A stretch of DNA of 64,000 bases from IMG/VR virus record IMGVR_UViG_3300003332_000015, positions 82,576 through 146,575 of that record; one strand, 5' to 3'. Positions within the stretch are counted from its first letter, which is position 1. Every line of letters begins with the position of its first letter. Positions 6,105 through 20,529 of this stretch are shown one piece after another. The DNA is from a virus. Lineage: Duplodnaviria; Heunggongvirae; Uroviricota; Caudoviricetes. The notes under the pieces are model-generated. The model was not told the origin of the DNA and did no database searches. It was given only the letters and a program-made list of their open reading frames with translations. Position numbers and translations under genes: made by a program.

Positions 6105-6198
6105 TTTTTTAATATTTTTTTTAAAAAATTTAATTTTAATATTATTATGTTTATACGTACTATAAATCTGTCCTAAAAATGAAAAAAATAACTACTAA

Positions 6199-6897
6199 AT
6201 GTATATAGGAGTTTTTATGAATTACAAATTAAAGTATAATTTATCAATAGTAGCATTATTTATTGTTATTACATTATTCCGTATAGGAGTACAGTTTGAT
6301 AATAAAATAAAATTTTTAGAAGGTGAAAATACTATATTAATATCTAGTTTAACACGTACTATAATTACTATGGACTATATGCAACAGTTTAAAGAGTTAT
6401 ATAATAAACCACCTACTATGTTATGGCCTATGATGTTAGAAGACTATAAGTATATGAGTTCTTATAAAGGAATTAGAGATATTCCTAAGACATTATATAC
6501 TGGAGGTTCTTTAACAAGAGAACATGATGGAGTTGATATAGTAGGAGAAAAGATTAAAATTGATGGTATAGAAGGTGCAAGAATTATAAATGTTTATGAT
6601 GGTGTTGTTATAGATCATTATCTTCCTCCAGGTTGGCATAACGGTAAGTTATATACTGGAGATCCTGAGTTAGGTGGAAAAGTAGTAATACTACATGATA
6701 ATGGTTTTACTTCTGTATCAGGACATATGGACTGGACTAATGTACATATAGGACAAAGAATTCCTGCTGGATATGTTATTGGTAGACAAGGAAATAGTGG
6801 GATGAGTACAGGGCCACATTTACATTTTGAATTATATGATGAGAACATGAAATTATTACAACCACTGTTTTATATAAAGGATCCAAACGATGTCTAG
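6199..6897 (+). CDS. M23 family metallopeptidase with N-terminal transmembrane segment
   Basis: HxxxD...GxSxG...HLHFE (M23 HxH) motif; hydrophobic N-terminus. Confidence 0.75.
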   Translation: MYIGVFMNYKLKYNLSIVALFIVITLFRIGVQFDNKIKFLEGENTILISSLTRTIITMDYMQQFKELYNKPPTMLWPMMLEDYKYMSSYKGIRDIPKTLYTGGSLTREHDGVDIVGEKIKIDGIEGARIINVYDGVVIDHYLPPGWHNGKLYTGDPELGGKVVILHDNGFTSVSGHMDWTNVHIGQRIPAGYVIGRQGNSGMSTGPHLHFELYDENMKLLQPLFYIKDPNDV

Positions 6898-7099
6898 TTG
6901 TGTACTAATAGTTAAAGAGAGTTGCTTAAAAGACGTTTTTGACGAGCTACAAGAGCAAATAGTCGAGCATGGTCTACTAGTAAGAATCATGGAAGAAAGT
7001 GAATTTAATAGTATGATGAACATATTAAAAGAAGATGAATATAAGGAAGAAAATGATGGGCAAAAACTTCTCTATGGCAAACAAAGGTCAAAGGAATAA
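6890..7099 (+). CDS. small hypothetical protein
   Basis: 69-aa ORF overlapping neighbours; weak. Confidence 0.25.
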   Translation: MSSCVLIVKESCLKDVFDELQEQIVEHGLLVRIMEESEFNSMMNILKEDEYKEENDGQKLLYGKQRSKE

Positions 7100-7640
7100 A
7101 TCAGATTTTTACCAAACTCCCTATAGCTTAACTAGGGAATTATTAAATCATGAATTGTTTGATTTTAATTTATCTGTATTAGAACCAGCTTGTGGACAAG
7201 ATGCTATAGTAAAAGTATTAAATGAAAGATTTAATATAAATTGTGTAGTTAAAGGGGATATACAAAAAGGTGTAGATTTTCTTAAATTTGATGGTATAAC
7301 TTTTCCTTATTTAATAACAAATCCTCCTTTTTCTTTAGCTTATGAATTTATTGTAAAAGCAAAAGAAGTTACTGAAGATAAAATAGCGATGGTATTACCT
7401 CTAAATTATTTACATGGTCAAAAAAGATATGAAACATTGTGGAAGGATAAAGAATTCCCATTAAAAAAAGTTTATGTATTTAGTCGATATCCTATGTTAA
7501 CAGATAAAGTTAGGGAAGATGGACTGTTTAATACTGGTATGATGGTGTATATGTGGGCAGTCTGGGAAAGAAGTTATACTGGATTACCTTATATAGATTG
7601 GATTGATATTAATAAATATATAATTAAAAAGAAAAAATAA
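7053..7640 (+). CDS. N6-adenine DNA methyltransferase
   Basis: LITNPPF catalytic motif (NPPF/DPPY class); start moved to the ATG after AAGGAAG. Confidence 0.6.
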   Translation: MMGKNFSMANKGQRNKSDFYQTPYSLTRELLNHELFDFNLSVLEPACGQDAIVKVLNERFNINCVVKGDIQKGVDFLKFDGITFPYLITNPPFSLAYEFIVKAKEVTEDKIAMVLPLNYLHGQKRYETLWKDKEFPLKKVYVFSRYPMLTDKVREDGLFNTGMMVYMWAVWERSYTGLPYIDWIDINKYIIKKKK

Positions 7641-7706
7641 GTTTTTTTAAAAAAATGAAAATAAATATTATTGTATTAATACAAAGATACAATAGGAGAA
7701 AAACAA

Positions 7707-8051
7707 ATGAGTGACGAAGAGGTAGTTAACAATGGTGCTTTTTTAGATTCTTTGATTAGATCAAACTCAAAGATTAAGAAAGACAGGGCAACAGCGATTG
7801 GAGAAGATACTCAGGTTCTTTACAAAAGGAATATTGAGGATTTAGAGATTTCTGTTAAGAGAATGAAAAGAGAACAGGAGAATATGATGGATTTATCTCC
7901 TGAGAATGCTACAAGCTTAATGCTTGCAAGCGATTTTGACTCTTCCGCATATGTTGAAAAGGATGTTGATCTTGGTGTCAAGATTCATAATACAACTATT
8001 AAACTGGACATCGCAAAGAAAAGATATAAATATCTTTTTGGAGGTGTGTAA
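7707..8051 (+). CDS. hypothetical protein
   Basis: ORF with RBS (AGGAG) upstream. Confidence 0.45.
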   Translation: MSDEEVVNNGAFLDSLIRSNSKIKKDRATAIGEDTQVLYKRNIEDLEISVKRMKREQENMMDLSPENATSLMLASDFDSSAYVEKDVDLGVKIHNTTIKLDIAKKRYKYLFGGV

Positions 8052-8911
8052 TGGGTAGTGGAAGTTATTCTGTAGCTGATTCAATGATGAGGACAGCGAA
8101 TTTTTATTCTGCTGATGTCTCCCGTGATGAAATATTTGTACAGCGTAAAATCACAAATGATATGGATCCTGCAAATACTATTCGGGAATGTTGTGATTCT
8201 GAAGAACATCCAAATACAATTCCAATCATTGTAGCTCTTGATGTAACAGGTTCAATGGGGAGTATTCCTGACCAATTTATTAGAGAGTCAATGACAAAGA
8301 TGATGGACATTTTATATAGAAGTGGATTAAGAGATACTCAAGTATTGTTCCTTGGAATAGGTGATCACGAGTGTGATATTTCTCCTTTACAGGTTGGTCA
8401 GTTTGAAGCTGATGATGAACTTCTTGATAAGTGGTTGAAAGATATCTATCTTGAAGGTGGAGGAGGAGGTAATGCTGGTGAGAGTTATTTACTTGCTTGG
8501 TATTATGCAGCTCGAAATACTAAAATTGATTCTTTTGATAAAAGGAGTAAGAAAGGTTTTCTATTTACAATAGGAGACGAACCCTGTTTAAAACACTTAC
8601 CCGCTAATGCTCAAAAAAGTATTTTTGGTGATAATGGTATTTATAATGATATAACTGCTGATAAACTTCTTGAAGAAGCAAGTGAAAAATATAATGTATA
8701 TCATTTTAATGTAACCGATACTTATAGAGGTAGTCTTGTTAAAGACACTCAGGAAGGTTGGAAGCAAAGAATGGGAGATCGTTGTATAATTGGTCCTCAG
8801 ATAGAAATTGCTGAAAAGATTGCTAATATTGTAAAAGATAATGGGGTTGGAGTTCCTGCTAAAAAAGTAGACAATCCTATAGAGGACAAAGCTGAAGTTG
8901 AAATGATGTAA
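8051..8911 (+). CDS. von Willebrand factor A (vWA) domain protein
   Basis: MIDAS-like motif IIVALDVTGSMGS (DxSxS). Confidence 0.55.
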   Translation: MGSGSYSVADSMMRTANFYSADVSRDEIFVQRKITNDMDPANTIRECCDSEEHPNTIPIIVALDVTGSMGSIPDQFIRESMTKMMDILYRSGLRDTQVLFLGIGDHECDISPLQVGQFEADDELLDKWLKDIYLEGGGGGNAGESYLLAWYYAARNTKIDSFDKRSKKGFLFTIGDEPCLKHLPANAQKSIFGDNGIYNDITADKLLEEASEKYNVYHFNVTDTYRGSLVKDTQEGWKQRMGDRCIIGPQIEIAEKIANIVKDNGVGVPAKKVDNPIEDKAEVEMM

Positions 8912-8929
8912 AGTATTTAGGGAATTAAA

Positions 8930-9751
8930 ATGAAGAGATATGGTTATGTCTATATAACAATTAATTCAGTTAATAATAAAAAATATATTGGACAACATAT
9001 CTCTTCTGAATTTGATTGTTTATATAGAGGTTCAGGTTCCCTCATAGTAAAAGCAATAAAAAAATATAGAAAAAGAAACTTTAAAGTAACACTTTTGGAA
9101 TGGGCGTACTCTTTAGAAGAGCTTAACTCTTTAGAACAAAAGTATATTAGAAAGTATAATGCAGTACAGTTAGACGAATTCTATAATTTAGAGTCAGGAG
9201 ATAGAAACTGTCCTTGTTCTGAAGAGAGAATTCAAAAATATAAGAATACTGTTTACAATACTATTGAAAGTAATGGGTTAACTATTGCCCAAAATATTGG
9301 TCTTAAAGTTTCTAAATCACAGAATGAAATTCAAGAAAATGGAAAAACTAAAGTACAAAATTCTGGTAAAAAGTTTTCTAAGGCAGTAACAACTACTATA
9401 CAAGAAAATGGTTTAACTATAGCACAGAATATAGGAAGAAAGTCAATAGCATCACGTAAACGAATAGAAGATAATGGTTTAACCGTTGTACAAAATACTA
9501 ATATTAAATCAGCAAAAGTTAAAAAAAATACAATATTACCTAATGGTTTAAGTATTGCTCAAGACGCATCTATAAGAGCAGCTAAAACAATGAAAAAAAT
9601 TGAGAGTAATGGAAAAACAATAAAACAAAATAGATTAGAAAAAAGACAGAAAACAATGGCTAAGATAGGTGAAGATGGATTAAATGGATTCCAAAGATCT
9701 TCACTTAGATGTAAAGAAACAAAACTAAAAAATAAGAGGAATAAAAAATGA
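8930..9751 (+). CDS. GIY-YIG homing endonuclease with NUMOD3-like repeats
   Basis: N-terminal YGYVYITIN...YIGQ (GIY-YIG) and repeated NGLTIAQNIG... units. Confidence 0.75.
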   Translation: MKRYGYVYITINSVNNKKYIGQHISSEFDCLYRGSGSLIVKAIKKYRKRNFKVTLLEWAYSLEELNSLEQKYIRKYNAVQLDEFYNLESGDRNCPCSEERIQKYKNTVYNTIESNGLTIAQNIGLKVSKSQNEIQENGKTKVQNSGKKFSKAVTTTIQENGLTIAQNIGRKSIASRKRIEDNGLTVVQNTNIKSAKVKKNTILPNGLSIAQDASIRAAKTMKKIESNGKTIKQNRLEKRQKTMAKIGEDGLNGFQRSSLRCKETKLKNKRNKK

Positions 9752-10845
9752 GTCAATCAATTGTTTTGGGTTTAGGTTTTGGAGATGAAGGAAAAGGTTT
9801 AGTAACAGATTGGTTATGTTCTAAAGTATTTAAACCTGCTGTTATAAGATATTCAGGTGGACATCAAGTTGGACATTGTGTACGTACTGAAACAGACAAA
9901 CATATTTTTTCTAATTTTGGTTCTGGTACGTTAAGAGGTGTTCCTACATTTTGGAATGCAAAGACTGTTGATCCTGTAGGATTTTGTAAGGAGTATAAAG
10001 TACTTTCTTCTTTTGATCCTATTATACAGATCGATCCCTTGTGTCCAGTTACTACTCCTTATGAAAAAGAATTAAATCAAATAAATGAAATAACAAATAA
10101 TCATGGTAGTATCGGAGTTGGTTTTGGTACTACCATTGAAAGAGAAGAAAAAAATTATCATTTGTATTTTCAAGATTTATTTTATCCACCATTACTGCAA
10201 GCAAAATTAGATAGTATAAAAAAGTATTATAGAACTGAAAAAAATATAATGGTATACCCAAAGGTTATTACACAATTTCTTAATAGTTGTCAAGAAATGA
10301 CTAAATTAGTAAAAACTGATTTAGATGTATCAGATGGATATAATCATATTTATGAAAGTTCACAAGGTCTAATGATAGATATGGACTATGGTATTTTTCC
10401 TAATGTTACACGTTCCAAATTAGGAACACAAGAACTTGAAGTAAATGAATTTACAGACTACTTTTTAGTAACAAGAGCTTATCAAACAAGACATGGAAAT
10501 GGTTATTGTTCTGATAGATCATACACTCCTTCAGGTTTTACTGTAGATGAAACAAATTTTCAAAATAAATATCAAGGTGAGTTTAAAACAAGAATTCTTG
10601 ATTTAGATTTACTAAAGTATGTAATGACTATTGATAAAGGAATAAGAGAATCTAATAGAAAGAATTTAGTTATTACATGTTTAGATCATATGAAGACTTA
10701 TGAATTTATGTATAAAGGGAAAATTGTTGTTTTTGAAAATGAATATTATTTTATACAGGCTATTGGTAATATTTTACCAAAAGTAAATTACATATATTTA
10801 AGTCATGGACCAACAGCAGAAGACATAGATTTATTTATATCATGA
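9748..10845 (+). CDS. purA: adenylosuccinate synthetase-like protein
   Basis: N-terminal GLGFGDEGKGLVTDWL P-loop and GVGFGTT motif are characteristic of PurA; shorter than bacterial PurA. Confidence 0.65.
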   Translation: MSQSIVLGLGFGDEGKGLVTDWLCSKVFKPAVIRYSGGHQVGHCVRTETDKHIFSNFGSGTLRGVPTFWNAKTVDPVGFCKEYKVLSSFDPIIQIDPLCPVTTPYEKELNQINEITNNHGSIGVGFGTTIEREEKNYHLYFQDLFYPPLLQAKLDSIKKYYRTEKNIMVYPKVITQFLNSCQEMTKLVKTDLDVSDGYNHIYESSQGLMIDMDYGIFPNVTRSKLGTQELEVNEFTDYFLVTRAYQTRHGNGYCSDRSYTPSGFTVDETNFQNKYQGEFKTRILDLDLLKYVMTIDKGIRESNRKNLVITCLDHMKTYEFMYKGKIVVFENEYYFIQAIGNILPKVNYIYLSHGPTAEDIDLFIS

Positions 10846-11267
10846 AAAAAGTTGCAGTAGTTGGTTCTCGTACATTTAAAGATTTTAAACTCTTAGAAAA
10901 AGAAATTACTAATATAATTAAAATAAACGATATTAGTGAAATTGTTTCTGGTGGTGCTAAAGGAGCTGATAGAGTAGGTAGATCATTTGCTACTATACAT
11001 AAACTTTCTTTAAAAGAGTTTATTCCTAATTGGAAAGTAAATGGTGTTTATAACTCTCGTGCAGGATTTGAACGTAATAATCTTATTATTGAAAGAGCTG
11101 ATATTGTTTTTGCATTTTGGAATGGAGAAAGTAGAGGTACTAAAAATAGTATTGACTTAGCTAAAAAGTTAGGTAAAGAATTACATGTTATCTACTTTGA
11201 AGAAGTTTCTTATACAAAAGAAGAACTAGAAGTTTTCAAACAAAGAGATAAAATGATTGGTTTGTAA
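10842..11267 (+). CDS. DprA/SLOG-like Rossmann-fold protein
   Basis: VAVVGSRTF...SGGAKGADRVG resembles the DprA/DUF2493 nucleotide-binding motif. Confidence 0.45.
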   Translation: MKKVAVVGSRTFKDFKLLEKEITNIIKINDISEIVSGGAKGADRVGRSFATIHKLSLKEFIPNWKVNGVYNSRAGFERNNLIIERADIVFAFWNGESRGTKNSIDLAKKLGKELHVIYFEEVSYTKEELEVFKQRDKMIGL

Positions 11268-11269
11268 AT

Positions 11270-11310
11270 TTCTTTTAAAAAACTGTAAAAAAATATTATT
11301 ATATTAATAT
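11270..11310 (+). promoter_or_regulatory. phage promoter motif
   Basis: ttttaaaaaactgtaaaaaaatattattatattaat. Confidence 0.5.
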
Positions 11311-11491
11311 GGAAACTGTAACAATAGAGTTAGAAGAAAATATACTATTACAATTATGTTTATTAGCACATGAAAAAGACATTACTCTTAATGTACTTGT
11401 AAATAATATTTTAAGAGAGTATATTGAAAAACATGGGGATGATCAGGTTTCGACTAATGAGGTAAATAAAGACGACGATAATTGCATTTAA
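11309..11491 (+). CDS. small hypothetical protein
   Basis: 60-aa ORF after a promoter motif. Confidence 0.3.
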   Translation: METVTIELEENILLQLCLLAHEKDITLNVLVNNILREYIEKHGDDQVSTNEVNKDDDNCI

Positions 11492-11577
11492 ACCCGAAAG
11501 TCTTTGTAGATTAAAATCTTGTATCAAAAATTAGGACCTGGCTTCGATGCCAGCATCTCCACTAAAAGGATTATAGA

Positions 11578-11955
11578 ATGGACGAACCAAAAGTTTTACT
11601 AACATCAGCAGGAGATAGTTTTGCAATAATTAAGACATCAGCAGAAGATTTTCTTAATTCTTTTGAAACACAAGATTTAAAAGAAACTTATTTGTTTGAT
11701 AATTATTGTGCATTACTTTACTGTTATCAAAAAGATAAAGCTAGAAAATTAATGGGTGAAAAAGTTTCATATTTTGAAGAACTTGAAGAATCTGTTAATT
11801 TTTGGAGAAGTGAATTAAATAAAGCAAAAGGTAAAGTAAGTCTTTATGAAGCTGATGGTAAAGTTAAAATGATGTGGGATGATTTTGAGAAAAGGTTAAA
11901 AGGTAATGAAAGTAAAATCATTACAAAGAATTCTAGTAGTATAATTACAATTTAA
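11578..11955 (+). CDS. hypothetical protein
   Basis: ORF with RBS; ends immediately before a tRNA. Confidence 0.4.
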   Translation: MDEPKVLLTSAGDSFAIIKTSAEDFLNSFETQDLKETYLFDNYCALLYCYQKDKARKLMGEKVSYFEELEESVNFWRSELNKAKGKVSLYEADGKVKMMWDDFEKRLKGNESKIITKNSSSIITI

Positions 11956-12026
11956 GCCGTATTGGTGAAGTGGTATCATAAGAGATTTCCAATCTTCGGT
12001 CGCCAGTTCGATTCTGGCATACGGCT
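11956..12026 (+). tRNA. tRNA-Gly (UCC)
   Basis: Acceptor gccgtat/atacggc, T-arm gccag-TTCGATT-ctggc, anticodon loop uuUCCaa counted back from the T-stem; no encoded CCA. Confidence 0.75.
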
Positions 12027-12050
12027 ATATTTAAAATATAGGAGTACAAA

Positions 12051-12272
12051 ATGACAGAATGGAAAAAATATAAAAGAAGTGCAATTGCAGAAATGAGAAC
12101 ATATGAAGAGGGAGAAGTTTTAGAACATGTTTCTATTTCAGAACCTGATTTAGAGAATGGATCTCCTAAAGTAGGGGATATGATTGCACGTAATCCAAAG
12201 AATCATAATGATCAATGGCTTGTTGCAAAACAATATTTTATGGAGAATTTTGAGGACATTAAAAATGAGTAG
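12051..12272 (+). CDS. hypothetical protein
   Basis: 73-aa ORF. Confidence 0.35.
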   Translation: MTEWKKYKRSAIAEMRTYEEGEVLEHVSISEPDLENGSPKVGDMIARNPKNHNDQWLVAKQYFMENFEDIKNE

Positions 12273-12429
12273 AGCTGGTAAAAGTAAAAGTGAACATAAC
12301 AATAATGGAGAAAGAAGAAAAGGTAAAAATAATATGCCTTTAGCTCCTAGAAGTTTACGTCGAGTTGGCAAAAAGTATATGTCAGAGTGTACTGATGCAC
12401 AACTTAAAAAGGCTCAAGTAGAAAAATAA
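12265..12429 (+). CDS. small basic protein (Lys/Arg-rich)
   Basis: ATG at 12265 within the 12184..12429 ORF; highly basic. Confidence 0.3.
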   Translation: MSRAGKSKSEHNNNGERRKGKNNMPLAPRSLRRVGKKYMSECTDAQLKKAQVEK

Positions 12430-12435
12430 ATTTTA

Positions 12436-12541
12436 GCAGGTTAGTGTAAAGGTAACACGGGAGTCTCATTAATATTATATGGTGAGTAGTATTAATAAGC
12501 TCCTGCCGAAAGGCTTCAAGGTTCGAGTCCTTGGCCTGCTA
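12436..12541 (+). tRNA. type-II (long variable arm) tRNA-like gene with a ~27-nt insertion or extension in the anticodon loop
   Basis: Acceptor gcaggtt/ggcctgc, T-arm caagg-TTCGAGT-ccttg, variable-arm hairpin gccGAAAggc, anticodon stem ggagt/gctcc enclosing a 34-nt loop. Confidence 0.55.
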
Positions 12542-12797
12542 AAGACTCTTGCAGGATAGACTTAGGTTGTGATAAGCTTTTAGGAGTGTAAGCAATAAGT
12601 CCTAATTGTAACTACTGTTCAAGATCTTAATATGCACCCTCCCAGTGCTATCTATTAAGATAGTCTAGAAGAGAGGTAGGTGGATGTCCCAACAAAGTTT
12701 CAATCCACCAAAACCCGAAAGCTACGACAGGGTATAAAAAGTGTGAAAGAGATTAGCATATGACAATGATCTTTAGTAGTTTGACGTAGCACCACAT
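12542..12797 (+). other. 256-nt non-coding segment between two insertion-bearing tRNAs
   Basis: No ORF; several hairpins (ggtggat...atccacc). Contains GTAAGCAATAAGTCCTAATTG, resembling the start box of the 13.9-kb repeat family. Confidence 0.3.
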
Positions 12798-12913
12798 TGG
12801 GAAGTAGCTCAGTGGTAGAGCAGCGGAATAGTTTTACTTTTCGCTTATAGCATAAAAAGTTCCTAACACTTATTAGGATCCGCAGGTCGTTGGTTCGAAT
12901 CCAACTTTCCCAA
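12798..12913 (+). tRNA. type-I tRNA gene interrupted by a 44-nt insertion in the anticodon loop (identity undetermined)
   Basis: Canonical acceptor (tgggaag/tttccca), D-arm tagctcagtggtagagc, anticodon stem gcgga/tccgc, T-arm gttgg-TTCGAAT-ccaac. The loop is 51 nt and contains ACTTTTCGCTT-AT-AGCATAAAAAGTTCCTAA. Confidence 0.65.
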
Positions 12914-13008
12914 AGAGGTATTTATTACATGCCTGTAAAATTTGTTTAACGTAAACAAAAGTAATTATTAAGGTGAAAGTGTCACCGAACACAAGTAGCC
13001 TTTTATAT

Positions 13009-13083
13009 GCCACATTAGCTCAGTTGGTTTAGAGCGACGCACTTGTAATGCGTAGGTCCTCCGTTCGAGTCGGTGATGTGGCT
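13009..13083 (+). tRNA. tRNA-Thr (UGU)
   Basis: Perfect acceptor gccacat/atgtggc, loop cuUGUaa, T-arm ctccg-TTCGAGT-cggtg. Confidence 0.85.
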
Positions 13084-13281
13084 TTTTTAAATTACCTAAG
13101 TAAGTGTTGAGGTGTGTTATGACAAGCACTTACCCATTTATCTTGAGTACCTAAGTGGGATAATAAAGGTAATAATAATAAGAGTTATGGCTGAAGAATT
13201 ACCATTTTTGGATATTGTGTAAGAGGTTTTACCCAGCATTTTTGTTCCAAAAGATAACAATAATAGTTATCAATTCTTATT

Positions 13282-13371
13282 TGGGGGAGTAGCTCAGCGG
13301 GTAGAGTAGCTCTTGTAAGTCATGAAATTTTTGTGATGGAGTTGGTCGGTAGTTCAAATCTATCCTTCCCC
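13282..13371 (+). tRNA. type-I tRNA gene with a ~19-nt insertion in the anticodon loop
   Basis: Acceptor gggggag/cttcccc, D-arm tagctcagcgggtagagt, T-arm ggtag-TTCAAAT-ctatc. Loop ttgtaag...ttgtgat carries canonical heptamers at both ends (GUA at 5', GUG at 3'). Confidence 0.6.
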
Positions 13372-13373
13372 AC

Positions 13374-13445
13374 TGTGGATGTAGCTCAGCGGTAGAGCGG
13401 TGGATTGTGATTCCACATGTCGGGAGTTCAAATCTCCTCATTCAC
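13374..13445 (+). tRNA. tRNA-His (GUG) with extra 5' G(-1)
   Basis: 8-bp acceptor including G-1:C73, loop uuGUGau, T-arm gggag-TTCAAAT-ctcct. Confidence 0.85.
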
Positions 13446-13597
13446 CTTAACAGCGTTCGCCTACACTGTATAAATAAGAAAGGGTCGGGGGGAGCGATAC
13501 GACGAGCGTATGCGAGAGATATTTATAAAGTATGTTCACTTGAAGGGATAACCTTAACAAAGAAAACTTTATCTTTAAATCGTAAAAGGAATATAAA

Positions 13598-13840
13598 ATG
13601 AATTTAGGTAAAAAAGGAACAGATATAATAACTGGTTTTACTGGAACAGTTGTTGGTTATGTTGAATATTTAACAGGTTGTAACCAATATTTAATTGTTC
13701 CTGAATGTCGTAAGGGTGAAACTAATAAAAAACCAAGTGGAGAATGGATAGACGATAATAGAATTAAAATTGAAAAAGGAAAAACAATTGATCTATTTAG
13801 AACTAACTCTACTGGATCAGACATTTCACCACATACATAA
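13598..13840 (+). CDS. hypothetical protein
   Basis: 80-aa ORF with RBS. Confidence 0.4.
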   Translation: MNLGKKGTDIITGFTGTVVGYVEYLTGCNQYLIVPECRKGETNKKPSGEWIDDNRIKIEKGKTIDLFRTNSTGSDISPHT

Positions 13841-13849
13841 AAATAATTT

Positions 13850-13898
13850 ATTTTTTATTTAACAAACTGTAATAATTTATTATTATATTAATGTAAGT
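13850..13898 (+). promoter_or_regulatory. phage promoter motif (full consensus TTATTATTATATTAATGTAAGT)
   Basis: Its +1 region runs directly into repeat unit 1 of the array. Confidence 0.55.
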
Positions 13899-14306
13899 AA
13901 GCAAAGGAAGTTCCTAATAATATTCAATTGGTGGAAAAACTTACTTCCCGCTTACATAATTTATTTAGTGTAAGGAAGCATAGAAGGTTCCTAAACAAAG
14001 AATTTTAATCTAAACTACCTTCCGCTTCGCTTATTATATTGTTTATTAATTGGGCATAAAGGGTTCCTATAAAAAAAATACGGAAAACATTTGATTTACC
14101 CTTCGCCCTTATTTTGTTTATTAAGGCATTGAAAGTTCCTAAATAACCTGACTTAAAATCAGGCTCAGCCGAAAGGCTAAGCTATTTACTTTCCGCCTTT
14201 ATTATATTATATAAAATGGAGCATAGGAAGTTCCTATTAAACAATCCAATCGGGAAGTAACCCTAGTGGTGAAAACCCCGATTATCAGTGTATTACTTCC
14301 CGTTTC
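13897..14306 (+). repeat. tandem array of five structured-RNA-like units
   Basis: Units at ~13897-13955, 13974-14030, 14052-14108, 14123-14199 and 14218-14306. Each has 5' stemA-N3/4-stemB-GTTCCTA, a variable core, then 3' stemB'-(C)G-stemA'. Stems covary between units (gtaagc/gcttac, gaagc/gcttc, gggc/gccc, aaggc/gcctt, ggagc/gtttc with G·U pairs). AT-rich promoter-like linkers separate units. Confidence 0.7.
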
Positions 14307-14326
14307 TAATTTTTAAGGAGATGAAA

Positions 14327-16258
14327 ATGATATCTACATTAAGACTATTCAATGGTGTAATTGTTGACGACAAAACAACTAAAGGTCGAAATGATTATGT
14401 TGAAACTGAATTTCAAAAAGAAACTATGAAGAAAGGGTATATTATAGATGAAAAAATCTATAGTACTATGTCTTTCACCGATATTGATCGACTTCATAAT
14501 GTTATTGAAACAGAAGTATTAACTTCTTATGAAAATTGGAATAATGCTTTTTATAAATCTTGGAGTAAATTAGAAACACTTTCTGATCTTGAATTACGTG
14601 TTGATCAGTTACTACATTACTTTACTACATACGGTTTTGAAGCTCTTGGAATAAATAATTCTTTTGTTTATATACCAGAAGGTACAATTGATCTTCCTGA
14701 ACTTGATAAAGATCTTTCTTTCCTTTATATAAAAGCATTAAGCTGGGAAGAAGTAAAAGGTAGACTTGACAGTCTTATTGGTTCCGGTGTTGCTATGTCT
14801 GAACAAACTCAGTTAGACATTATGGAAGTTTATGAAGAGATTGGTTTTGATGCTTCTATTTTAGAAGTTTGTAAAAATAAAGAATTAAAAACTCGTTTTT
14901 ATGAGAAGTATGACTTAGTACCAAAAAATGCAACAGAGTTTTTAAGATATGTAATTATGAAGTCAACAGGAAATTCTCTTGTAATAAAAGATAAGGCAAC
15001 AATCGAGTCTATCAAAATTGGTGGTGGTAAAAAAGAAGTATTAGACACTTTTACTAAGTATGAAAACAGCTATGGTCTAACAGAACTTGCTTCCTCTTTT
15101 TATAGATATAAACCTTTATGGTTAGCTTTTAAAAGTTACACAGGTTTAAGTCCTATGATAAATAAAATTAGAAGATTAGCAGTTAATTACCATAAACCAA
15201 TGAAGGCTGATTTACTTAATGATTTAACAGGAATGTTAAATAGAAAAGAAAATATAAGTTATCCTGAATTAAATAGGGCTCTTGACAAAGCAAATAGTTT
15301 TAGAAAAATAAGATTACTATATGCTTTACAAAATAGAAAGAGTAAAAATACTGAAGTTGTTTATAGAATAAGAAACGGTAAGTCTTATGCAACAAATAGA
15401 GTTATAAATTCTAATCTTTTAGGTGTTGCTACTGTACGTAAGATTGTATACTCTTCTTTAGTTAAAGACTTAAAAGAAAAAGTGGAGAATAAACTTGTTT
15501 ATTTATCACCTAATATTAATTATGCTCTTCCTGCAACTGAAAAACAATTTGTAGGTAATTTTCCTACAGGAACATCTGTAGCAATAGATAAAGATAAAGA
15601 TGTAATCATGGGAGTACACTGGACTAATCAACAACAGAAAAGAGTTGATCTTGATTTATCACTTATTGATATTTCAGGTAACAAGTATGGTTGGGATGGA
15701 TCTTATAGAAATAGTAATAGATCTGTAATGTTTTCAGGAGATTTTACAAATGCACCATTACCAAAAGGAGCTACAGAATTATATTACTTTAAAGGTATAC
15801 AGGATGGAAGTTACTTAGTTAATATCAATTATTATAATAGTTTATATAGTGGTGATGGAGAAGATGTTCCTTTTGATATTGTAGTAGGTGGAAGTGTTGC
15901 TAATAAATCAAATAGAGGATTTATGATTAGTCCTAATGAAATAGTAGCACAAGTTCCTTCATTTATGGGGAACGACCAACAAGTAATTGGTCTTGTTATA
16001 ATTAAAGAAGGACAAGGAACCTTTTACTTTGCTGAAGCAAAAGTTGGTGTAGGACGTACTTCAAGAGGAACTGATACTGCAATGATACATCAAAAGTTCT
16101 TAGTTAATACATTGGAAGATACTATTGACTTTGAAAAGTTATTACTGGATGCAGGAGCTCTTACTACACGAGGTAAAGAGGATAATCCTCAGGATATAGA
16201 TTTTGATTTTTCAGTTGAGTCTATATCAAAAGACTCTATTTTAGAACTTTTTTATTAA
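14327..16258 (+). CDS. large hypothetical protein (~643 aa)
   Basis: Long ORF; ATG at 14327 six nt after AAGGAG. The track ORF begins upstream at a GTG that overlaps repeat unit 5. Confidence 0.6.
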   Translation: MISTLRLFNGVIVDDKTTKGRNDYVETEFQKETMKKGYIIDEKIYSTMSFTDIDRLHNVIETEVLTSYENWNNAFYKSWSKLETLSDLELRVDQLLHYFTTYGFEALGINNSFVYIPEGTIDLPELDKDLSFLYIKALSWEEVKGRLDSLIGSGVAMSEQTQLDIMEVYEEIGFDASILEVCKNKELKTRFYEKYDLVPKNATEFLRYVIMKSTGNSLVIKDKATIESIKIGGGKKEVLDTFTKYENSYGLTELASSFYRYKPLWLAFKSYTGLSPMINKIRRLAVNYHKPMKADLLNDLTGMLNRKENISYPELNRALDKANSFRKIRLLYALQNRKSKNTEVVYRIRNGKSYATNRVINSNLLGVATVRKIVYSSLVKDLKEKVENKLVYLSPNINYALPATEKQFVGNFPTGTSVAIDKDKDVIMGVHWTNQQQKRVDLDLSLIDISGNKYGWDGSYRNSNRSVMFSGDFTNAPLPKGATELYYFKGIQDGSYLVNINYYNSLYSGDGEDVPFDIVVGGSVANKSNRGFMISPNEIVAQVPSFMGNDQQVIGLVIIKEGQGTFYFAEAKVGVGRTSRGTDTAMIHQKFLVNTLEDTIDFEKLLLDAGALTTRGKEDNPQDIDFDFSVESISKDSILELFY

Positions 16259-16315
16259 ATAATAAAGCGTCCTGGGTAAGACGCCTCAACCCCTTTAAAC
16301 TGCCTGCGGAGGACA

Positions 16316-16426
16316 AATGACTGAGAAAGAAATGTTTGAAAAATCCTTTGAAAGACCAAGTAACTATTTTATATTAAATAGTAGGAAACAGTGGGAAATA
16401 GATTCTAAATTAGGAATACTTGATTA
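16316..16426 (+). CDS. possible 36-aa micro-ORF
   Basis: ATG preceded by GGAGG in a GC-richer intergenic region; speculative. Confidence 0.15.
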
Positions 16427-16496
16427 GGTAGGTGAAAATTTAAACAATGCAGAAAAACAAAGATTTAGAGACTATTATGATTTTCCTGATACTTCT

Positions 16497-16612
16497 TATT
16501 TAATGAGATAATAGTTTACATTAAATACGATAATGTAAATAATAGTTTACATTACGGGCCGGTAACCAAGTCCGGTAAGACATCACTCTTTACATAAACA
16601 GTTACTAATACA
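16497..16612 (+). promoter_or_regulatory. candidate operator/leader: three copies of TTTACAT(T/A)A plus ccgg hairpin, then AAACAGTTACTAATACAATATG at the start codon
   Basis: tagtttacatta / taatgtaaataatagtttacatta / ctctttacataa; the final 22-mer recurs at 50649-50672 fused to another ATG. Confidence 0.4.
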
Positions 16613-16614
16613 AT

Positions 16615-17274
16615 ATGAGTATAAAAATTAAAGAAGAATGGAAGAATCAAGAAGGATTATATATTTGTCCTGTATGTCAAAAAAGATATACTAAAAATGG
16701 AATAAGTACACACATTTGGAGAATGCACGGTGAAGGTAACAATCATAAACCTTTTAAAAATAAAATAACATGGAATAAAGGTTTAACTAAAGAAACCGAT
16801 GATCGTGTTAAACAACAAGGTATTAATTTTAGTAAAGCTTTTAAAGAAGGGAAAATAAAATCTAGAAAAGGAACAAAATTATCTAAAGAAATTTGTAAAA
16901 AAATTTCAATAGGTATGCAAAAAGTAGTTAGAGATAATCCAGAATCTTATAATTCTAAGAATGTATGTGGTAGAGTAAAAAATATAGATTATAATGGATT
17001 TACTCTTAAAGGTAATTGGGAACTTTTAGTTGCTAAGTTTTTAGATTCGAAAGGGATTAAATGGACTAATATAGTTGAACCTTTTACTTATATTTGGAAA
17101 GGTAGTAAACATTTATATTTTCCTGATTTTTATCTTTTAGAAAGAGATGAATATATTGAAGTTAAAGGATATGAAAGGCCTAAAGATGTAGAAAAATGGA
17201 AGGTAGTAAGTAATTTAAGAATTATTAAACTTAAAGAAATTAATAACATTAAAAACAATTTATATTGTATATAA
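16615..17274 (+). CDS. PD-(D/E)xK-nuclease-like protein with N-terminal C2H2-type zinc finger (possible homing endonuclease)
   Basis: CPVCQ...HIWRMH zinc finger; FPDFYLLERDEYIEVKG fits a PD-(D/E)xK motif. Confidence 0.45.
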   Translation: MSIKIKEEWKNQEGLYICPVCQKRYTKNGISTHIWRMHGEGNNHKPFKNKITWNKGLTKETDDRVKQQGINFSKAFKEGKIKSRKGTKLSKEICKKISIGMQKVVRDNPESYNSKNVCGRVKNIDYNGFTLKGNWELLVAKFLDSKGIKWTNIVEPFTYIWKGSKHLYFPDFYLLERDEYIEVKGYERPKDVEKWKVVSNLRIIKLKEINNIKNNLYCI

Positions 17275-17346
17275 GGGTTTATAACTCAGGGGTAGAGTGG
17301 GTTTCTCATAAAAACTTGGTCGGTAGTTCAAATCTATCTAAACCCA
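17275..17346 (+). tRNA. tRNA-Met/Ile2 (CAU), elongator-like
   Basis: Acceptor gggttta/taaaccc, loop cuCAUaa, T-arm ggtag-TTCAAAT-ctatc. Confidence 0.85.
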
Positions 17347-17587
17347 TTTTTAAAACCTTTTAAATAAGGTGTACTAACATAATAAAGGATTATAAAAGAA
17401 ATAATGAATATTTTGAAAAGTCAAAAACAGTTTAATTTATCTCAACTCTTAGCCATCGTTTCACCTGTATGGTTTAATGATTATAGAGTAATGAGGAGAT
17501 TGTATTGACAGTGTGATTCTACATGTTAATTTTGATATACAATCCCTTATAATTTATAAAGGATTTTTTTTATGATTATTTATCATA

Positions 17588-17631
17588 AAATTTAAAAAGT
17601 TTTAAAAAATTATTATTATATAAGTGTAAGG
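17588..17631 (+). promoter_or_regulatory. phage promoter motif upstream of the tRNA cluster
   Basis: tttaaaaagttttaaaaaattattattatataagtgtaagg. Confidence 0.55.
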
Positions 17632-17659
17632 AGTATATTTTGTTTAGTGACTTTAGAAT

Positions 17660-17733
17660 GTGAAGGTAGCGTAACAGGTAACGCGCTGGACTGAAAATCC
17701 AGTAATTAGTGAGTTCAAGTCTCACCCTTCACA
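17660..17733 (+). tRNA. tRNA-Phe (GAA)
   Basis: Acceptor gtgaagg/ccttcac, loop cuGAAaa. Confidence 0.85.
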
Positions 17734-17740
17734 ATAACAT

Positions 17741-17820
17741 GCGATAGGCGCTGTCAGGGAACACAAGGAGTCTGTAAAACTCTTGCTTCGGCTTGGAAGG
17801 TTCGAGTCCTTCATGTCGCA
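17741..17820 (+). tRNA. tRNA-Tyr (GUA), type II
   Basis: Loop cuGUAaa, variable-arm hairpin gcTTCGgc, T-arm gaagg-TTCGAGT-ccttc. Confidence 0.8.
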
Positions 17821-17833
17821 TATATTAAATAAT

Positions 17834-17906
17834 GTGAGTGTACGCAAGCGGCTATGCGACTTCGTTTGGGGCGAAGGAGTCGGGTGTTCGAATCACCCCA
17901 CTCGCA
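17834..17906 (+). tRNA. tRNA-Pro (UGG)
   Basis: Acceptor gtgagtg/cactcgc, stem cttcg/cgaag, loop uuUGGgg. Confidence 0.8.
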
Positions 17907-17910
17907 TCTT

Positions 17911-17992
17911 GCCAGGGTGCTGAAATTGGTAGACAATCGGGTTTTAGAAACCCGAGCCTTCGGGTGTAAGGGTTCGAGTCCCTTTCCTGGTA
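17911..17992 (+). tRNA. tRNA-Leu (UAG), type II
   Basis: D-arm tgaaattggtagac, loop uuUAGaa, long variable arm, T-arm aaggg-TTCGAGT-ccctt. Confidence 0.85.
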
Positions 17993-18077
17993 CTACAAAA
18001 ATTTTAAAAGGAGTAATAGTATGAAGAATATAATTTATGGTCTTTAAGTAATTTAATTTATTAAGGAGACATATTTT

Positions 18078-18668
18078 ATGTATTACATTCACAATTATAT
18101 TGAAGACACTTGGAGATCTACAAAAACTTGGTGGGATTTAGTAGAGTATTTTTATAGACCTAAAGTAGATTATTTTGGATTTAAATATTTCTTTGATGAT
18201 GGTTTTGACAATATTGCTCATAGCAAGAATGATACAAAGCTTAGTTATGTTCCAATATCTGAAGGTTCATATGCTACGAAAGCTGTTTATGTACCAAGAT
18301 CGGAAATCATTTATAATGATGATATGGTAATTGTAAATATTGCTGACATTAAAAGGGCTTTAAAAGTTTTCAAACCAAGAGAAGAATCTTATCCTTATAA
18401 AAGTACATGGATGAGAAGAGGTAGATACTTCCAGTTTGAATTTCGTGTAGACCCTGTTCCTTATGTTGGAACTGGAAGAGGAGGAGGAAGTAGTTACAGA
18501 AAACCTAAAAGGAATAAAAACTACTTTGCTAAATTACAAGAGTTTGAAGAGTTTGATTCAAGAGTTAGAAAAGGTATTTTTGATGTCAGTCTTTGGTGGG
18601 ATGACTTTCCATATAGAGGTACTGTAAAATCTTGGAAGAATAAAAAGAAAAAGAAACAATGGATGTAA
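18078..18668 (+). CDS. hypothetical protein (RGG/basic C-terminal region)
   Basis: 196-aa ORF with RBS GGAG. Confidence 0.5.
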   Translation: MYYIHNYIEDTWRSTKTWWDLVEYFYRPKVDYFGFKYFFDDGFDNIAHSKNDTKLSYVPISEGSYATKAVYVPRSEIIYNDDMVIVNIADIKRALKVFKPREESYPYKSTWMRRGRYFQFEFRVDPVPYVGTGRGGGSSYRKPKRNKNYFAKLQEFEEFDSRVRKGIFDVSLWWDDFPYRGTVKSWKNKKKKKQWM

Positions 18669-18679
18669 ATTCATTACGA

Positions 18680-18752
18680 TCCTCTATAGCTCAATTGGTA
18701 GAGCGTCCGGCTGTTAACCGGAAGGTTGGTGGTTCAAGTCCATCTAGGGGAG
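18680..18752 (+). tRNA. tRNA-Asn (GUU)
   Basis: Loop cuGUUaa, T-arm ggtgg-TTCAAGT-ccatc. Confidence 0.85.
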
Positions 18753-18764
18753 CTAGGAGTTATT

Positions 18765-18920
18765 ATGAAATGTAATGGTAACATTCATGACAGAATTGCT
18801 AAAGAACTTGAAAGAATAAAAAATATGGATATAAAAGAACATCCTATGTCTCCTCCAAAAGATGAGATTTATTATGTGAAATTAGTTGAAAAAGAAAAAG
18901 ATTTAAACTTGCCTCTTTAG
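18765..18920 (+). CDS. small hypothetical protein
   Basis: ATG after AGGAG, downstream of tRNA-Asn. Confidence 0.3.
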   Translation: MKCNGNIHDRIAKELERIKNMDIKEHPMSPPKDEIYYVKLVEKEKDLNLPL

Positions 18921-18983
18921 TACAGTGGATTAGTGCATAGGATTTCGGATCCTAGAACACCGGTTCGAGTCCGGTAGGAGGTT
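18911..18983 (+). tRNA. tRNA-Arg (UCG)
   Basis: Stem tagga/tccta, loop uuUCGga, T-arm accgg-TTCGAGT-ccggt. Confidence 0.75.
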
Positions 18984-18985
18984 TA

Positions 18986-19171
18986 ATGAAAGAAGGAGAT
19001 TTTGTAAAAGTTGTTCACTGTAAAAGATCAAAGTATATGAACAGTGAATTTTTGAAATGGGTAGACGGACATAAAGATATAAAGTATTATGTTCTTTCAG
19101 CAGTAGGTAATAGAGTAAGACTTTCAAAAGTTGGTTTCCTTATTACAACTGAATTTTTAGAAAAAGTTTAA
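18986..19171 (+). CDS. small hypothetical protein
   Basis: 61-aa ORF between tRNAs. Confidence 0.3.
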   Translation: MKEGDFVKVVHCKRSKYMNSEFLKWVDGHKDIKYYVLSAVGNRVRLSKVGFLITTEFLEKV

Positions 19172-19176
19172 ATTAA

Positions 19177-19249
19177 GGGCCATTAGCTCAGTTGGTAGAG
19201 CGCCGGTTTTGCAAATCGGATGTCGAGAGTTCGAGCCTCTCATGTGTCC
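19177..19249 (+). tRNA. tRNA-Ala (UGC)-like gene with a defective acceptor stem (possible pseudogene)
   Basis: Canonical D-arm, stem ccggt/atcgg, loop uuUGCaa, T-arm gagag-TTCGAGC-ctctc. Acceptor gggccat vs atgtgtc pairs at only 5 of 7 positions. Confidence 0.5.
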
Positions 19250-19325
19250 ATCGGGAATAGTCCCTTACAGTAAATCATATACTTAACCGGTCAATGGATA
19301 TATGGTGGATAGTTGGTGGCGATAC

Positions 19326-19378
19326 TGGACAGAGATAAGGCCTTATCTCTTAATGGTGGTTCGATTCCATCTTTCTGA
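19326..19378 (+). ncRNA. tRNA-like minihelix element (acceptor-like stem + GGCC-loop hairpin + canonical T-arm); not a full tRNA
   Basis: cagaga...tttctg stem, hairpin agagataaGGCCttatctct, T-arm ggtgg-TTCGATT-ccatc. Homologous to the 21485-21633 element. Confidence 0.4.
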
Positions 19379-19442
19379 ATTTGAGATTCTTAACTGTTCT
19401 TCCTCTTGTAAGAAACAGTCAGTGAGGTGAAATGCCAAGCCA

Positions 19443-19513
19443 GGCCTTATAGTATAATGGTAGTGCGGGAGATTGTCTATCTTCAAGTCAGGGTTCGACT
19501 CCCTGTAGGGTCG
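19443..19513 (+). tRNA. tRNA-Asp (GUC)
   Basis: Acceptor ggcctta/tagggtc, loop uuGUCua, T-arm caggg-TTCGACT-ccctg. Confidence 0.8.
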
Positions 19514-19637
19514 CTAAGGATAATTAAAAATGGAGAATTGGTTTCAAGACATAGAATTTTTCCTAGATGAGAAAGGGGATATTCAACCTAAAAAAAATAT
19601 TAAAAAGGATACAATTGATATTTTGGAGTTGTATAAG

Positions 19638-19770
19638 TATGAAAGACAAATTTGTTTGCAAGAAATGCAAAAATAAATATCTTTGGGTATTAAAAGCAGA
19701 AGAACATCTTTGTGTTTATTGTAAAGGAGAATATCCTGATGGAACAGAGTGTAAAGGTGGTAAAAAATAA
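19638..19770 (+). CDS. small zinc-ribbon protein
   Basis: CKKCKNK...CVYCKGE motif. Confidence 0.3.
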
Positions 19771-19773
19771 CAT

Positions 19774-19846
19774 GCGGGTATAGTTCAACTGGATAGAGCA
19801 TAGGCCTTCTAAGCCTACAATAGGGGTTCGAGTCCTCTTACCCGTA
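19774..19846 (+). tRNA. tRNA-Arg (UCU)
   Basis: Stem taggc/gccta, loop cuUCUaa. Confidence 0.85.
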
Positions 19847-19980
19847 ATAAGTTCTTGTATCAATTTAATAACGTTTAAGGGATTGGTTGCTAGATATTCG
19901 TGACATGTTCACTGAGGCATTAGTGTCCTAGACGATATCATGGAAGTTGGCTCGAAAGGCTTTCTGAAAGAACTTTTTAT

Positions 19981-20052
19981 AGCTTCTTGGTGTAACGGTT
20001 AGCACAGTGGGATTTGGCCCCGCCAGTGAGGGTTCGAATCCTTCAGGAGCTG
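19981..20052 (+). tRNA. tRNA-Gln (UUG)
   Basis: Stem gtggg/cccgc, loop auUUGgc (G37 unusual), T-arm gaggg-TTCGAAT-ccttc. Confidence 0.65.
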
Positions 20053-20066
20053 ATAGGAGATAAAAA

Positions 20067-20252
20067 ATGAGTATTAAAGAACAAAAATTAGTTGATATTT
20101 GTTTTCAAATTGGTTTAGTAATACATAATCAATCGGATTACTTTAAAGATTTATCTTCAGATGAAACAGCTGATTGGATTGCTAACCAATTAAGATGGTG
20201 TGGTTTTCCTACAGAACCAGTAGGTTGTTCACATGGAGTTTTGATTAAATAA
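20067..20252 (+). CDS. small hypothetical protein
   Basis: 61-aa ORF with RBS. Confidence 0.3.
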   Translation: MSIKEQKLVDICFQIGLVIHNQSDYFKDLSSDETADWIANQLRWCGFPTEPVGCSHGVLIK

Positions 20253-20258
20253 AATTTA

Positions 20259-20332: not shown

Positions 20333-20344
20333 TAATATATGATT

Positions 20345-20431: not shown

Positions 20432-20436
20432 TACTT

Positions 20437-20520: not shown

Positions 20521-20529
20521 TAAAAGTTT

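Follow-up and report, generated by a model that had tools for sequence, protein, structure and literature searches.

The 64-kb window analysed here is part of a 146.5-kb source contig (IMG/VR record IMGVR_UViG_3300003332_000015, positions 82,576 to 146,575) from a Caudoviricetes phage with a genome of about 28% GC. All window genes lie on the + strand, among them a dispersed tRNA cluster at 11.9-23.8 kb in which four genes, called A to D below, carry extra sequence in the anticodon arm. Default ARAGORN identified 22 canonical tRNAs in the window, corresponding to 19 amino acids (without Trp) and an amber suppressor (CUA). With RF00005, the tRNA model of Rfam (gathering score 29 bits), a scan of window positions 10000-26000 added genes A, B, C and D, leading to a total of 26 tRNA genes. 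Apart from a long unaligned stretch in place of the 7-nt anticodon loop, the alignments of these four genes were complete. The inserts were confined to the anticodon arm of these four of the 26 genes and occurred nowhere else.

The window also encodes a bacterial-type RecA, a ribonucleotide reductase, SbcCD, the thymidylate synthase ThyX and a PurZ-like adenylosuccinate-synthetase homolog. Moreover, its tRNA-Tyr has a long variable arm (type II) and a transfer-messenger RNA (tmRNA)-like gene is present. A bacterial host is indicated because of the type II tRNA-Tyr, the bacterial RecA and the tmRNA-like gene. A DNA search of the INPHARED phages returned no close cultured phage and only generic tRNA matches. 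The phage contigs compared with the window are labelled L005, L008, L121 and so on, and the nearest genomes were reached through homologs of a conserved 656-aa protein encoded downstream of gene C (Table 1).

Genes A and C and their inserts

Gene A was overlooked by default ARAGORN and recovered in intron mode, and it matched RF00005 with 36.5 bits (E=8.8e-6 in a 1-kb scan). Its acceptor stem (AGCAGGT/GCCTGCT), D arm (GTGT/ACAC with G18G19), variable arm (GCC-GAAA-GGC) and T arm (CAAGG-TTCGAGT-CCTTG) can all be traced, and its anticodon stem GGAGT/GCTCC encloses 34 nt (12465-12498) instead of 7. The whole gene folds better than shuffled sequences (z = -4.3). In minimum free energy (MFE) structures, positions 12468-12496 form a hairpin of 11 bp with a 7-nt loop, which stacks on the anticodon stem across a small internal loop and includes the anticodon bases A35 and U36 in its stem. 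Three registers of the insert (starting at 12468, 12469 or 12470) give the same joined loop, CTCATAA (RNA CUCAUAA).

The initial annotation had proposed a comparison with orthologous genes of related phages, and this comparison was possible for gene A. L005 is a syntenic 147-kb phage (45% identity for the 656-aa protein) with 18 tRNAs, all uninterrupted. Its counterpart of gene A (L005:16768-16852) is an 85-nt long-variable-arm tRNA(CAU) without insert, with the loop CTCATAA. When the exon-joined gene A was compared with this ortholog, 21 of 21 stem pairs were retained, 7 of them altered on both sides. Because the pairs were kept through two-sided changes, the tRNA(CAU) is a species maintained by selection, with the insert of gene A as a clean addition. 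The combination of a long variable arm, A73 and anticodon CAU, found in gene A and in its L005 ortholog, is absent among canonical bacterial tRNAs, in which type I is the form of both tRNA-Met and tRNA-Ile2. Unrelated phage contigs contained further unusual tRNAs of type II (Cys-GCA, Ile-GAT), and the exon-joined gene A gave no match when searched against phage genomes.

Gene C, which scored 48.0 bits against RF00005 (E=5.8e-9), was labelled 'tRNA-???' by default ARAGORN and read in intron mode as Tyr(gta) with a 19-nt intron. Its anticodon stem GCTCT/GGAGT surrounds 24 nt (13314-13337) instead of 7. Two anticodon heptamers are found there, TTGTAAG on the 5' side (13313-13319) and TTGTGAT on the 3' side (13331-13337), the latter being identical to the loop of the adjacent tRNA-His. 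The whole gene again folds better than shuffles (z = -2.8). The insert hairpin has 8 pairs, 3 of which are G-U, and abuts the 3' strand of the anticodon stem; it forms on the sense strand only (-7.6 vs 0.0 kcal/mol on the other strand). Excision of the 19 nt leaves the loop TTGTAAG (UUGUAAG, anticodon GUA) closed by AGCTC/GAGTT. Alternatively, a 17-nt insert (13314-13330) leaves TTGTGAT (GUG).

According to the established identity rules, tRNA-His needs G-1 and C73, and the tRNA-His gene located 2 nt downstream of gene C is the sole tRNA here with these His identity elements. Gene C has A73 but neither G-1 nor C73, which is why its GUA reading was preferred. Judged from the sequence, the discriminator thus fits better with the 5' GUA, Tyr-like reading than with His, and the GUG copy would then lie within the excised hairpin. 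The D arm of gene C is of a generic GTAGCTCAG-GG-TAGAG type common to tRNA-His and gene B. Its variable loop and T arm (13342-13364, 23 nt) are identical to those of the tRNA-Met at 17275-17346 (repeat family D11), and the best match to its body is the Met-CAT tRNA of the window. Searched against phage genomes, the exon-joined gene C gave weak matches to cyanophage tRNA-Arg, and the Tyr-like reading is a tentative one. The initial annotation had placed both genes within one base of the boundaries in Table 1. Its account of their arms and of their interrupted loops, with 34 nt enclosed in gene A, was confirmed by RF00005, and its reading of the two heptamers, of the match to the tRNA-His loop and of G-1 as present in tRNA-His only was equally borne out.

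Table 1. Positions of the tRNA-like genes, inserts and protein-coding genes considered, with the basis of each call.
Feature	Position	Strand	Basis
Gene A, type II tRNA, anticodon CAU, loop interrupted	12435-12541, discriminator A 12542	+	RF00005, ARAGORN intron mode, MFE cloverleaf
Insert of gene A, 27 nt, TTAATATTATATGGTGAGTAGTATTAA	12469-12495	+	MFE structures; exon join equals loop of L005 ortholog
Gene B, tRNA-like, 51-nt 'loop' with conserved two-helix motif	12798-12913	+	Rfam, 56.2 bits
Gene C, type I tRNA, 24-nt anticodon loop	13283-13371, discriminator A 13372	+	RF00005, ARAGORN
Insert of gene C, 19-nt hairpin GTCATGAAATTTTTGTGAT, contains His-loop copy TTGTGAT	13319-13337	+	MFE, ARAGORN intron call
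Canonical tRNA-His(GUG), encoded G-1, C73	13375-13446	+	ARAGORN; Rfam, 66.7 bits
Conserved 656-aa protein	14288-16258	+	>1100 homologs at E<=1e-20
Gene D, type II tRNA-Leu, 36-nt hairpin insert	21357-21477	+	Rfam, 47 bits; ARAGORN Leu(taa) with 36-nt intron; MFE
Polynucleotide kinase-phosphatase (PNKP), T4 Pnk type	31035-32003	+	PF13671, PF25109, E=9e-35
Rnl1-type RNA ligase	33548-34681	+	PF09511 RNA_lig_T4_1, E=1.4e-13
'Swiss Army Knife' (SAK) RNA-repair HAD phosphatase, upstream of second RNA ligase	42376-42924		
Second RNA ligase	44133-45269	+	PF09414 with PHA02142 OB domain

Gene D, gene B and the two-helix motif

The insert of gene D is of the same kind as that of gene A. Depending on the register, the joined loop of gene D is CTTAAAA (UAA) or CTTAGAA (UAG), and its body is 97% identical over 30 nt to an uninterrupted tRNA-Leu(TAG) of contig L063. 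Removal of the hairpin leaves a loop of exactly 7 nt with U33 and A37 in all three genes (A, C and D). As encoded, the loops of A and C depart from the 7-nt form with U33 and a purine at position 37, which they take only after the hypothetical removal of the hairpin. Apart from these loops, alignments and MFE structures illustrate that A and C retain all four arms, U8, G18G19 and the TTCRANT T loop. The inserts of A, C and D are simple hairpins of 17-36 nt with no common sequence. No further copies were found in the window in a search for a repeat or miniature inverted-repeat transposable element origin, each insert being single-copy there, and no promoter or terminator was seen within the inserts. 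The G-U pairs of the hairpins and the strand-specific folding of that of gene C fit an RNA-level structure rather than a DNA palindrome.

Gene B is of a different class from A, C and D. Its insert contains the motif TTT-ACTTTT-C-GCT-TAT-AGC-ATA-AAAAGT-TCCTAA, belonging to a motif class with a 3-bp helix P1, an AWA/C internal loop and a 6-bp helix P2 ending G-C, U-A, followed by TCCTA. The motif of gene B recurs in contigs from independent samples (L008, L016, L042 and L048); the inserts of A, C and D do not contain it, and it had no match in Rfam. The initial annotation had counted four such inserts in one genome segment. This count holds, whereas their treatment as one phenomenon does not, B representing a conserved motif class and A, C and D unrelated hairpins.

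This previously undescribed motif also occurs with its circular order changed: the leader of the 656-aa gene (13900-14300) contains five such hairpins in tandem, with the form [RRC]-AWA-[NNNNGT]-TCCTAWA-(16-60 nt)-WTT-[ACNNNN]-C-[GYY]. Motif arrays lie directly upstream of 656-aa homologs in many contigs (L001, L002, L005, L008, L010, L013, L015, L019-L021, L027, L040, L048, L052, L058, L062 and others). An exact downstream complement of the variable 6-mer was present at 75 of the 102 sites matching the 5' half (swap control, 5.8). Of these 75 sites, 74 also pair in the 3-bp outer helix, with several pair types, and strong covariation is thus seen for both helices. In three contigs (L013:1184-1290, L041:430-590 and L046(-):4850-5010), the hairpin loop holds the 3' half of a gene B ortholog, a spacer of 4-44 nt and then the 5' half. 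These circularly permuted tRNA-like genes are located immediately upstream of the 650-aa protein gene, and their rejoined halves fold like gene B. No report of permuted tRNA genes in phages was found in the literature. A simple intron in gene B was rejected, since exon joins give loops of 8-15 nt, never 7, and permuted versions exist. Rather than holding a simple intron, gene B more probably is a tRNA-like RNA of which the extra arm forms an integral part, or else a new kind of processing signal.

The 656-aa protein had no sequence match in Pfam, PHROG or PDB. Its AlphaFold model (pLDDT 83) consists of an alpha-helical N-terminal part and a TerD-like C-terminal beta-sandwich. It was examined as an endonuclease and set aside, as there was no sequence match and the beta-sandwich was the only fold recognised in the model. 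Its gene always has the hairpin array ahead, and in L005 an RNA ligase gene comes next. The loop of the fourth leader hairpin (14147-14177) mimics the middle of a type II tRNA-Leu, with CCTGA-CTTAAAA-TCAGG (a UAA loop) followed by GCC-GAAA-GGC, the latter being the variable-arm hairpin of gene A.

Related phages, RNA-repair genes and other features of the window

Among the contigs of the five nearest 656-aa homologs, L008 alone extends to the tRNA region. There, the positional counterpart of gene C (L008:1018-1083) is a truncated His-like gene with the loop CTGTGAA and without the 3' anticodon strand; no ortholog of gene C was found in the compared genomes. Neither L005 nor L121 has interrupted tRNAs. 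Protein-anchor searches of IMG/VR and JGI metagenomes yielded homologs of at most about 43% identity and no ortholog of A or C at the loci, most of which were without tRNA genes. Searches of IMG/VR with exact or degenerate DNA patterns returned nothing for gene C and only the L005 phage for gene A.

The window carries an RNA-repair and anti-defence island, one part of which (31035-34681) is composed of PNKP, a Gad2 homolog (PF26128, 332 aa), a 173-aa open reading frame (ORF) and the Rnl1-type ligase. The 332-aa ORF between PNKP and Rnl1 was also considered as an endonuclease and rejected as this Gad2 anti-defence homolog. A further part of the island (41798-45269) has the order DUF5662, SAK-HAD phosphatase and RNA ligase. 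In the relative L121, the equivalent island (L121:7616-10999) contains RtcB, an RNA ligase and Gad2 instead, and neither PNKP nor an Rnl1-type ligase was seen in a 22-kb stretch of L005. PNKP may be considered a candidate end-healing enzyme for the inserts, and the Rnl1-type ligase a candidate sealing enzyme.

Several further features of the cluster were recorded. The tmRNA-like gene is a miniature of about 110-130 nt (window 11435-11564; L005:9124-9231) that matches the ends of the 374-position tmRNA model. It scores 59.9 bits in L005 and narrowly misses the threshold of 47 in the window with 44.9 bits; the window copy overlaps a 60-aa ORF. The amber-suppressor tRNA (anticodon CUA) at 22882-22954 suggests TAG recoding in part of the genome, while the window genes are still standard-code ORFs. 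The adenylosuccinate-synthetase homolog (9748-10845) is short, with 365 aa, and its nearest annotated phage relatives (30-37% identity) are labelled 2-aminoadenine (Z-genome) PurZ-type. Orphan T-arm-like elements (CTTAATGGNGGTTCGATTCCNTC), with no recognisable remainder of a tRNA, occur at window positions 19340-19380 and 21598-21630 and at L008:270-320; they are repeats within the cluster (families D9 and D12). A promoter-like repeat of about 60 nt (…AAACTGTAA…TTATTATTATATTAATGTAAGTAA; family D1, n=4) occurs at 11256, 13840, 17573 and 20522. Three of its four copies head tRNA sub-clusters, and the copy at 13840 precedes the leader hairpin array. In L122, a relative, the ARAGORN call at 5827-5899 is a tRNA whose anticodon has four bases (gaca) and whose loop would accordingly have 8 nt.

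Possible excision of the inserts and its alternatives

It is quite possible, and we propose it tentatively as the best-supported model, that A, C (and D) are tRNA genes with short protein-dependent introns that are cut by a nuclease and resealed by the phage repair enzymes. In such a precursor, the insert hairpin would stack on the anticodon stem and pair with part of the anticodon, and the precursor could not decode. Cleavage at the hairpin base would then follow, by an endonuclease for which a host RNase acting on double strands or anticodon loops, or a phage protein not recognisable in the 64-kb window, may be considered. RNase III-style cleavage with a 2-nt 3' overhang would agree with a single register of gene A and, given the symmetric ambiguity, with one of gene D. 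Its distance from the loop would be about 9-10 bp in gene A but about 14 bp in gene D, too different for one common ruler; such cleavage is one possibility only. The two halves would be comparable to a tRNA with a break in the anticodon loop; PNKP would heal their ends and the Rnl1-type ligase would seal them. The model of excision followed by healing and sealing was proposed because a hairpin-excised pre-tRNA is the same kind of substrate as the tRNAs resealed by T4 Pnk and Rnl1. Indeed, the same enzyme families are encoded here, and the proposed sealing is the same reaction. In T4, however, the host nuclease PrrC cuts mature host tRNA-Lys and no intervening sequence is removed, and the present link between enzymes and inserts is only a proposed one. 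The predicted product of gene A would be an 81-nt long-variable-arm tRNA with the loop CUCAUAA (CAU) and the junction GGGAGTCTCATAAGCTCC. Gene C would yield a 71-nt type I tRNA with the loop UUGUAAG (GUA, A73) and the junction AGCTCTTGTAAGGAGTT, or the junction GCTCTTTGTGATGGAGT under the GUG reading. Unspliced full-length species would measure 108 nt (A) and 90 nt (C).

Several observations weigh against excision. One related genome was comparable for gene A and none for gene C. L005 has no interrupted tRNA (0 of 18) and yet encodes a PF09414 RNA ligase, of the same family as the second ligase of the window. The repair genes adjoin the Gad2 anti-defence gene, and their presence could be accounted for just as well, and in the absence of introns, by counter-defence directed at host anticodon nucleases. 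No candidate splicing endonuclease was found in the window ORFs scanned; the 219-aa endonuclease (16615-17274), considered as a tRNA cutter, is a T7 endonuclease I-like DNA junction resolvase. The three hairpins share no sequence or structural signal, and their splice registers are ambiguous. After excision, the anticodon stem of gene C is offset by one base and nucleotide 26 is missing. Besides, gene C reads as a mosaic of a generic D arm, the T arm of tRNA-Met and a copy of the His loop. The gene anatomy, the hairpins, the 7-nt loops left on their removal, the uninterrupted ortholog of gene A and the presence of the repair genes can be read from the sequences, and excision itself, the exact cut sites, the enzymes and the amino-acid identities are inferred.

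A rather doubtful alternative is that the inserts stay, A and C being stable tRNA-like RNAs with an elongated anticodon arm that do not decode and that serve, for instance, to capture host anticodon nucleases or tRNA-modifying enzymes in the manner of a decoy or sponge. Their maturation would involve RNase P and RNase Z and possibly the addition of a CCA tail. This would be in line with the neighbouring gene B, a conserved tRNA-like RNA whose extra arm looks integral and which exists in normal and permuted gene order. It would also agree with the two anticodon heptamers of the Q family (GUA and GUG) displayed by gene C, and with the heavy investment of the phage in anti-nuclease RNA repair and anti-defence. 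Oversized stable RNAs whose function is unknown are similarly encoded among the tRNA genes of T4, namely rnaC and rnaD (species 1 and species 2 RNAs). Of these, rnaC is tRNA-like in having a T arm and an acceptor-like stem. Neither RNA, however, is a cloverleaf interrupted by one insert, and ARAGORN and Rfam-style parsing recover no complete tRNA from them. Against stable decoys, the L005 counterpart of gene A is an ordinary tRNA with a 7-nt loop, which makes decoding the ancestral state. Each of the inserts of A, C and D exists in one copy and that of A is absent from the one comparable relative, whereas the motif of gene B covaries across dozens of contigs. The perfect 7-nt loop left by excision in three of three genes is not required of a decoy. 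Also rather unlikely, and most plausible for gene C, is that A and C are tRNA pseudogenes recently inactivated by a small insertion or by recombination between tRNA genes. The mosaic nature of gene C speaks for it, as does the truncated counterpart in L008, according to which tRNA decay occurs at this spot. The lack of interrupted tRNAs in L005 and L121 points the same way, and the insert boundaries of A (AT/AT) and D (TA/TA) can be read as 2-bp target duplications. Decay is difficult to reconcile, however, with the fact that the stems and invariant bases of A and C are all intact. Moreover, phage genomes purge dead DNA fast, the hairpins rely on RNA-specific G-U pairs, and with single-copy inserts no mobile-element family is evident in the window. 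If the insertion site were uniform, four insertions in the anticodon arm would have a chance of about (7/75)^4, a rough estimate in which detection is biased toward loops.

Introns of the archaeal or eukaryal type, with a bulge-helix-bulge, an EndA-like endonuclease and RtcB joining, are very improbable. They resemble the present inserts in being short, in lying in the anticodon loop and in pairing with the anticodon, and they need an endonuclease and a ligase; the relative L121 does encode RtcB. An intron in register 37/38 is possible for gene C (TTGTAA|G, with a shifted stem) and for gene D (CTTAGA|A), whereas in gene A it gives U37, against A37 in the ortholog. Scanning both strands for a helix, 3-nt bulges, a 4-bp helix and a second helix gave 1-4 strict matches per gene vs 2.4 in shuffles, in a scan that had no positive control. 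None of these matches was anchored on the anticodon stem or left a 7-nt loop. No EndA-like protein was seen in about 50 of the 68 window ORFs (>=100 aa) searched with Pfam, ten of them also with PHROGs, in a window covering 64 of the 146 kb, and the host is bacterial. Assembly or chimera artefacts are just as improbable. The genome comes from a metagenome and was judged from assemblies. The initial annotation had asked for the assembly to be re-inspected, and this was done at assembly level with the independent Logan assembly of run SRR3223410, produced by different software, in which a 22.5-kb contig (L123) is 100% identical to window 1578-15400 and spans A, B and C. Because the second assembly is identical over these 13.8 kb, the inserts are no quirk of one assembler. 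Misassembly is moreover not expected to place four inserts this precisely, with 7-nt loops restored on their removal in A, C and D, and B-type inserts recur in independent samples.

To return to the proposed short introns in A, C and D, the closest precedent is provided by the Lak megaphages, in which 'enigmatic' non-group-I tRNA introns were described, with an unexplained mechanism and as the first report of tRNA introns in phages (Devoto et al., 2019; PMC6784885). The view that short non-group-I insertions in phage tRNA genes are not an established feature, expressed in the initial annotation, is corrected by this precedent. In Lak as here, anticodon loops of phage tRNAs, including a type I tRNA-Tyr(GTA), are interrupted by sequences without Rfam match, and alleles with and without the intron exist (PMC6784885). 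The Lak introns differ in their length of 79-114 nt, in a 5' start that is conserved among them and in an internal T-arm-like element ('a tRNA within the intron') (PMC6784885). The present inserts are simple hairpins of much smaller size without common sequence, from a phage of about 146 kb and 28% GC that is unrelated at the DNA level. A Lak-type intron was rejected for them, since they have no T arm and fall outside this length range (compared with Table S6 of PMC6784885). No later mechanistic work on such introns was found in the literature searched. What is new relative to Lak is hence the much shorter and simpler inserts, the unrelated phage, the uninterrupted ortholog of gene A and the full RNA-repair toolkit.

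Group I introns share the anticodon-loop site with the present inserts. In bacteria they are found in tRNA-Leu(UAA), tRNA-fMet(CAU) and tRNA-Ile(CAU) of cyanobacteria and Azoarcus; gene A has the same anticodon CAU and gene D the same UAA. The position of the gene D insert is compatible with 34/35, the site of the classical Leu(UAA) intron. Such introns also occur in tRNA-Asn and tRNA-Asp of Patescibacteria (PMC13011429). They differ from the inserts described here in being longer than 200 nt with a catalytic core, whereas inserts of 17-36 nt without Intron_gpI match cannot self-splice. A group I intron was rejected for A and C, whose inserts of 27 nt and 17-19 nt have no P3-P9 core, and the Rfam scan showed no intron family at E<=1, in agreement with the initial annotation, which had called the inserts non-group-I.

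To our knowledge, bacteria and their viruses are thought to carry only self-splicing (group I) tRNA introns, and protein-dependent tRNA splicing is treated as an archaeal and eukaryotic hallmark. In yeast and plants, it includes the Trl1 healing-and-sealing route, the chemistry of which is matched by that of the phage PNKP with an ATP-dependent ligase. A wider proposal, which we regard as unlikely, is that this group of phages runs its own protein-dependent cutting and joining of tRNAs, with hairpin introns resealed by PNKP and Rnl1 and the B-type motif possibly acting like a bulge-helix-bulge. If true, bacterial viruses would thereby have their first known system of tRNA splicing and permuted tRNAs, and the maturation of selected phage tRNAs would depend on phage enzymes, or anticodon loops would be hidden from host nucleases until needed. 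Default ARAGORN and the bacterial mode of tRNAscan miss interrupted genes, and phage tRNA repertoires are therefore undercounted; here, 3 of the 26 genes were missed and one was unassigned. If the hairpins of A, C and D are indeed removed and the halves rejoined by T4-type enzymes, the tRNA-repair pathway of phages would gain a second, housekeeping role, and the supply of phage tRNAs could be timed, or shielded from host anticodon nucleases.

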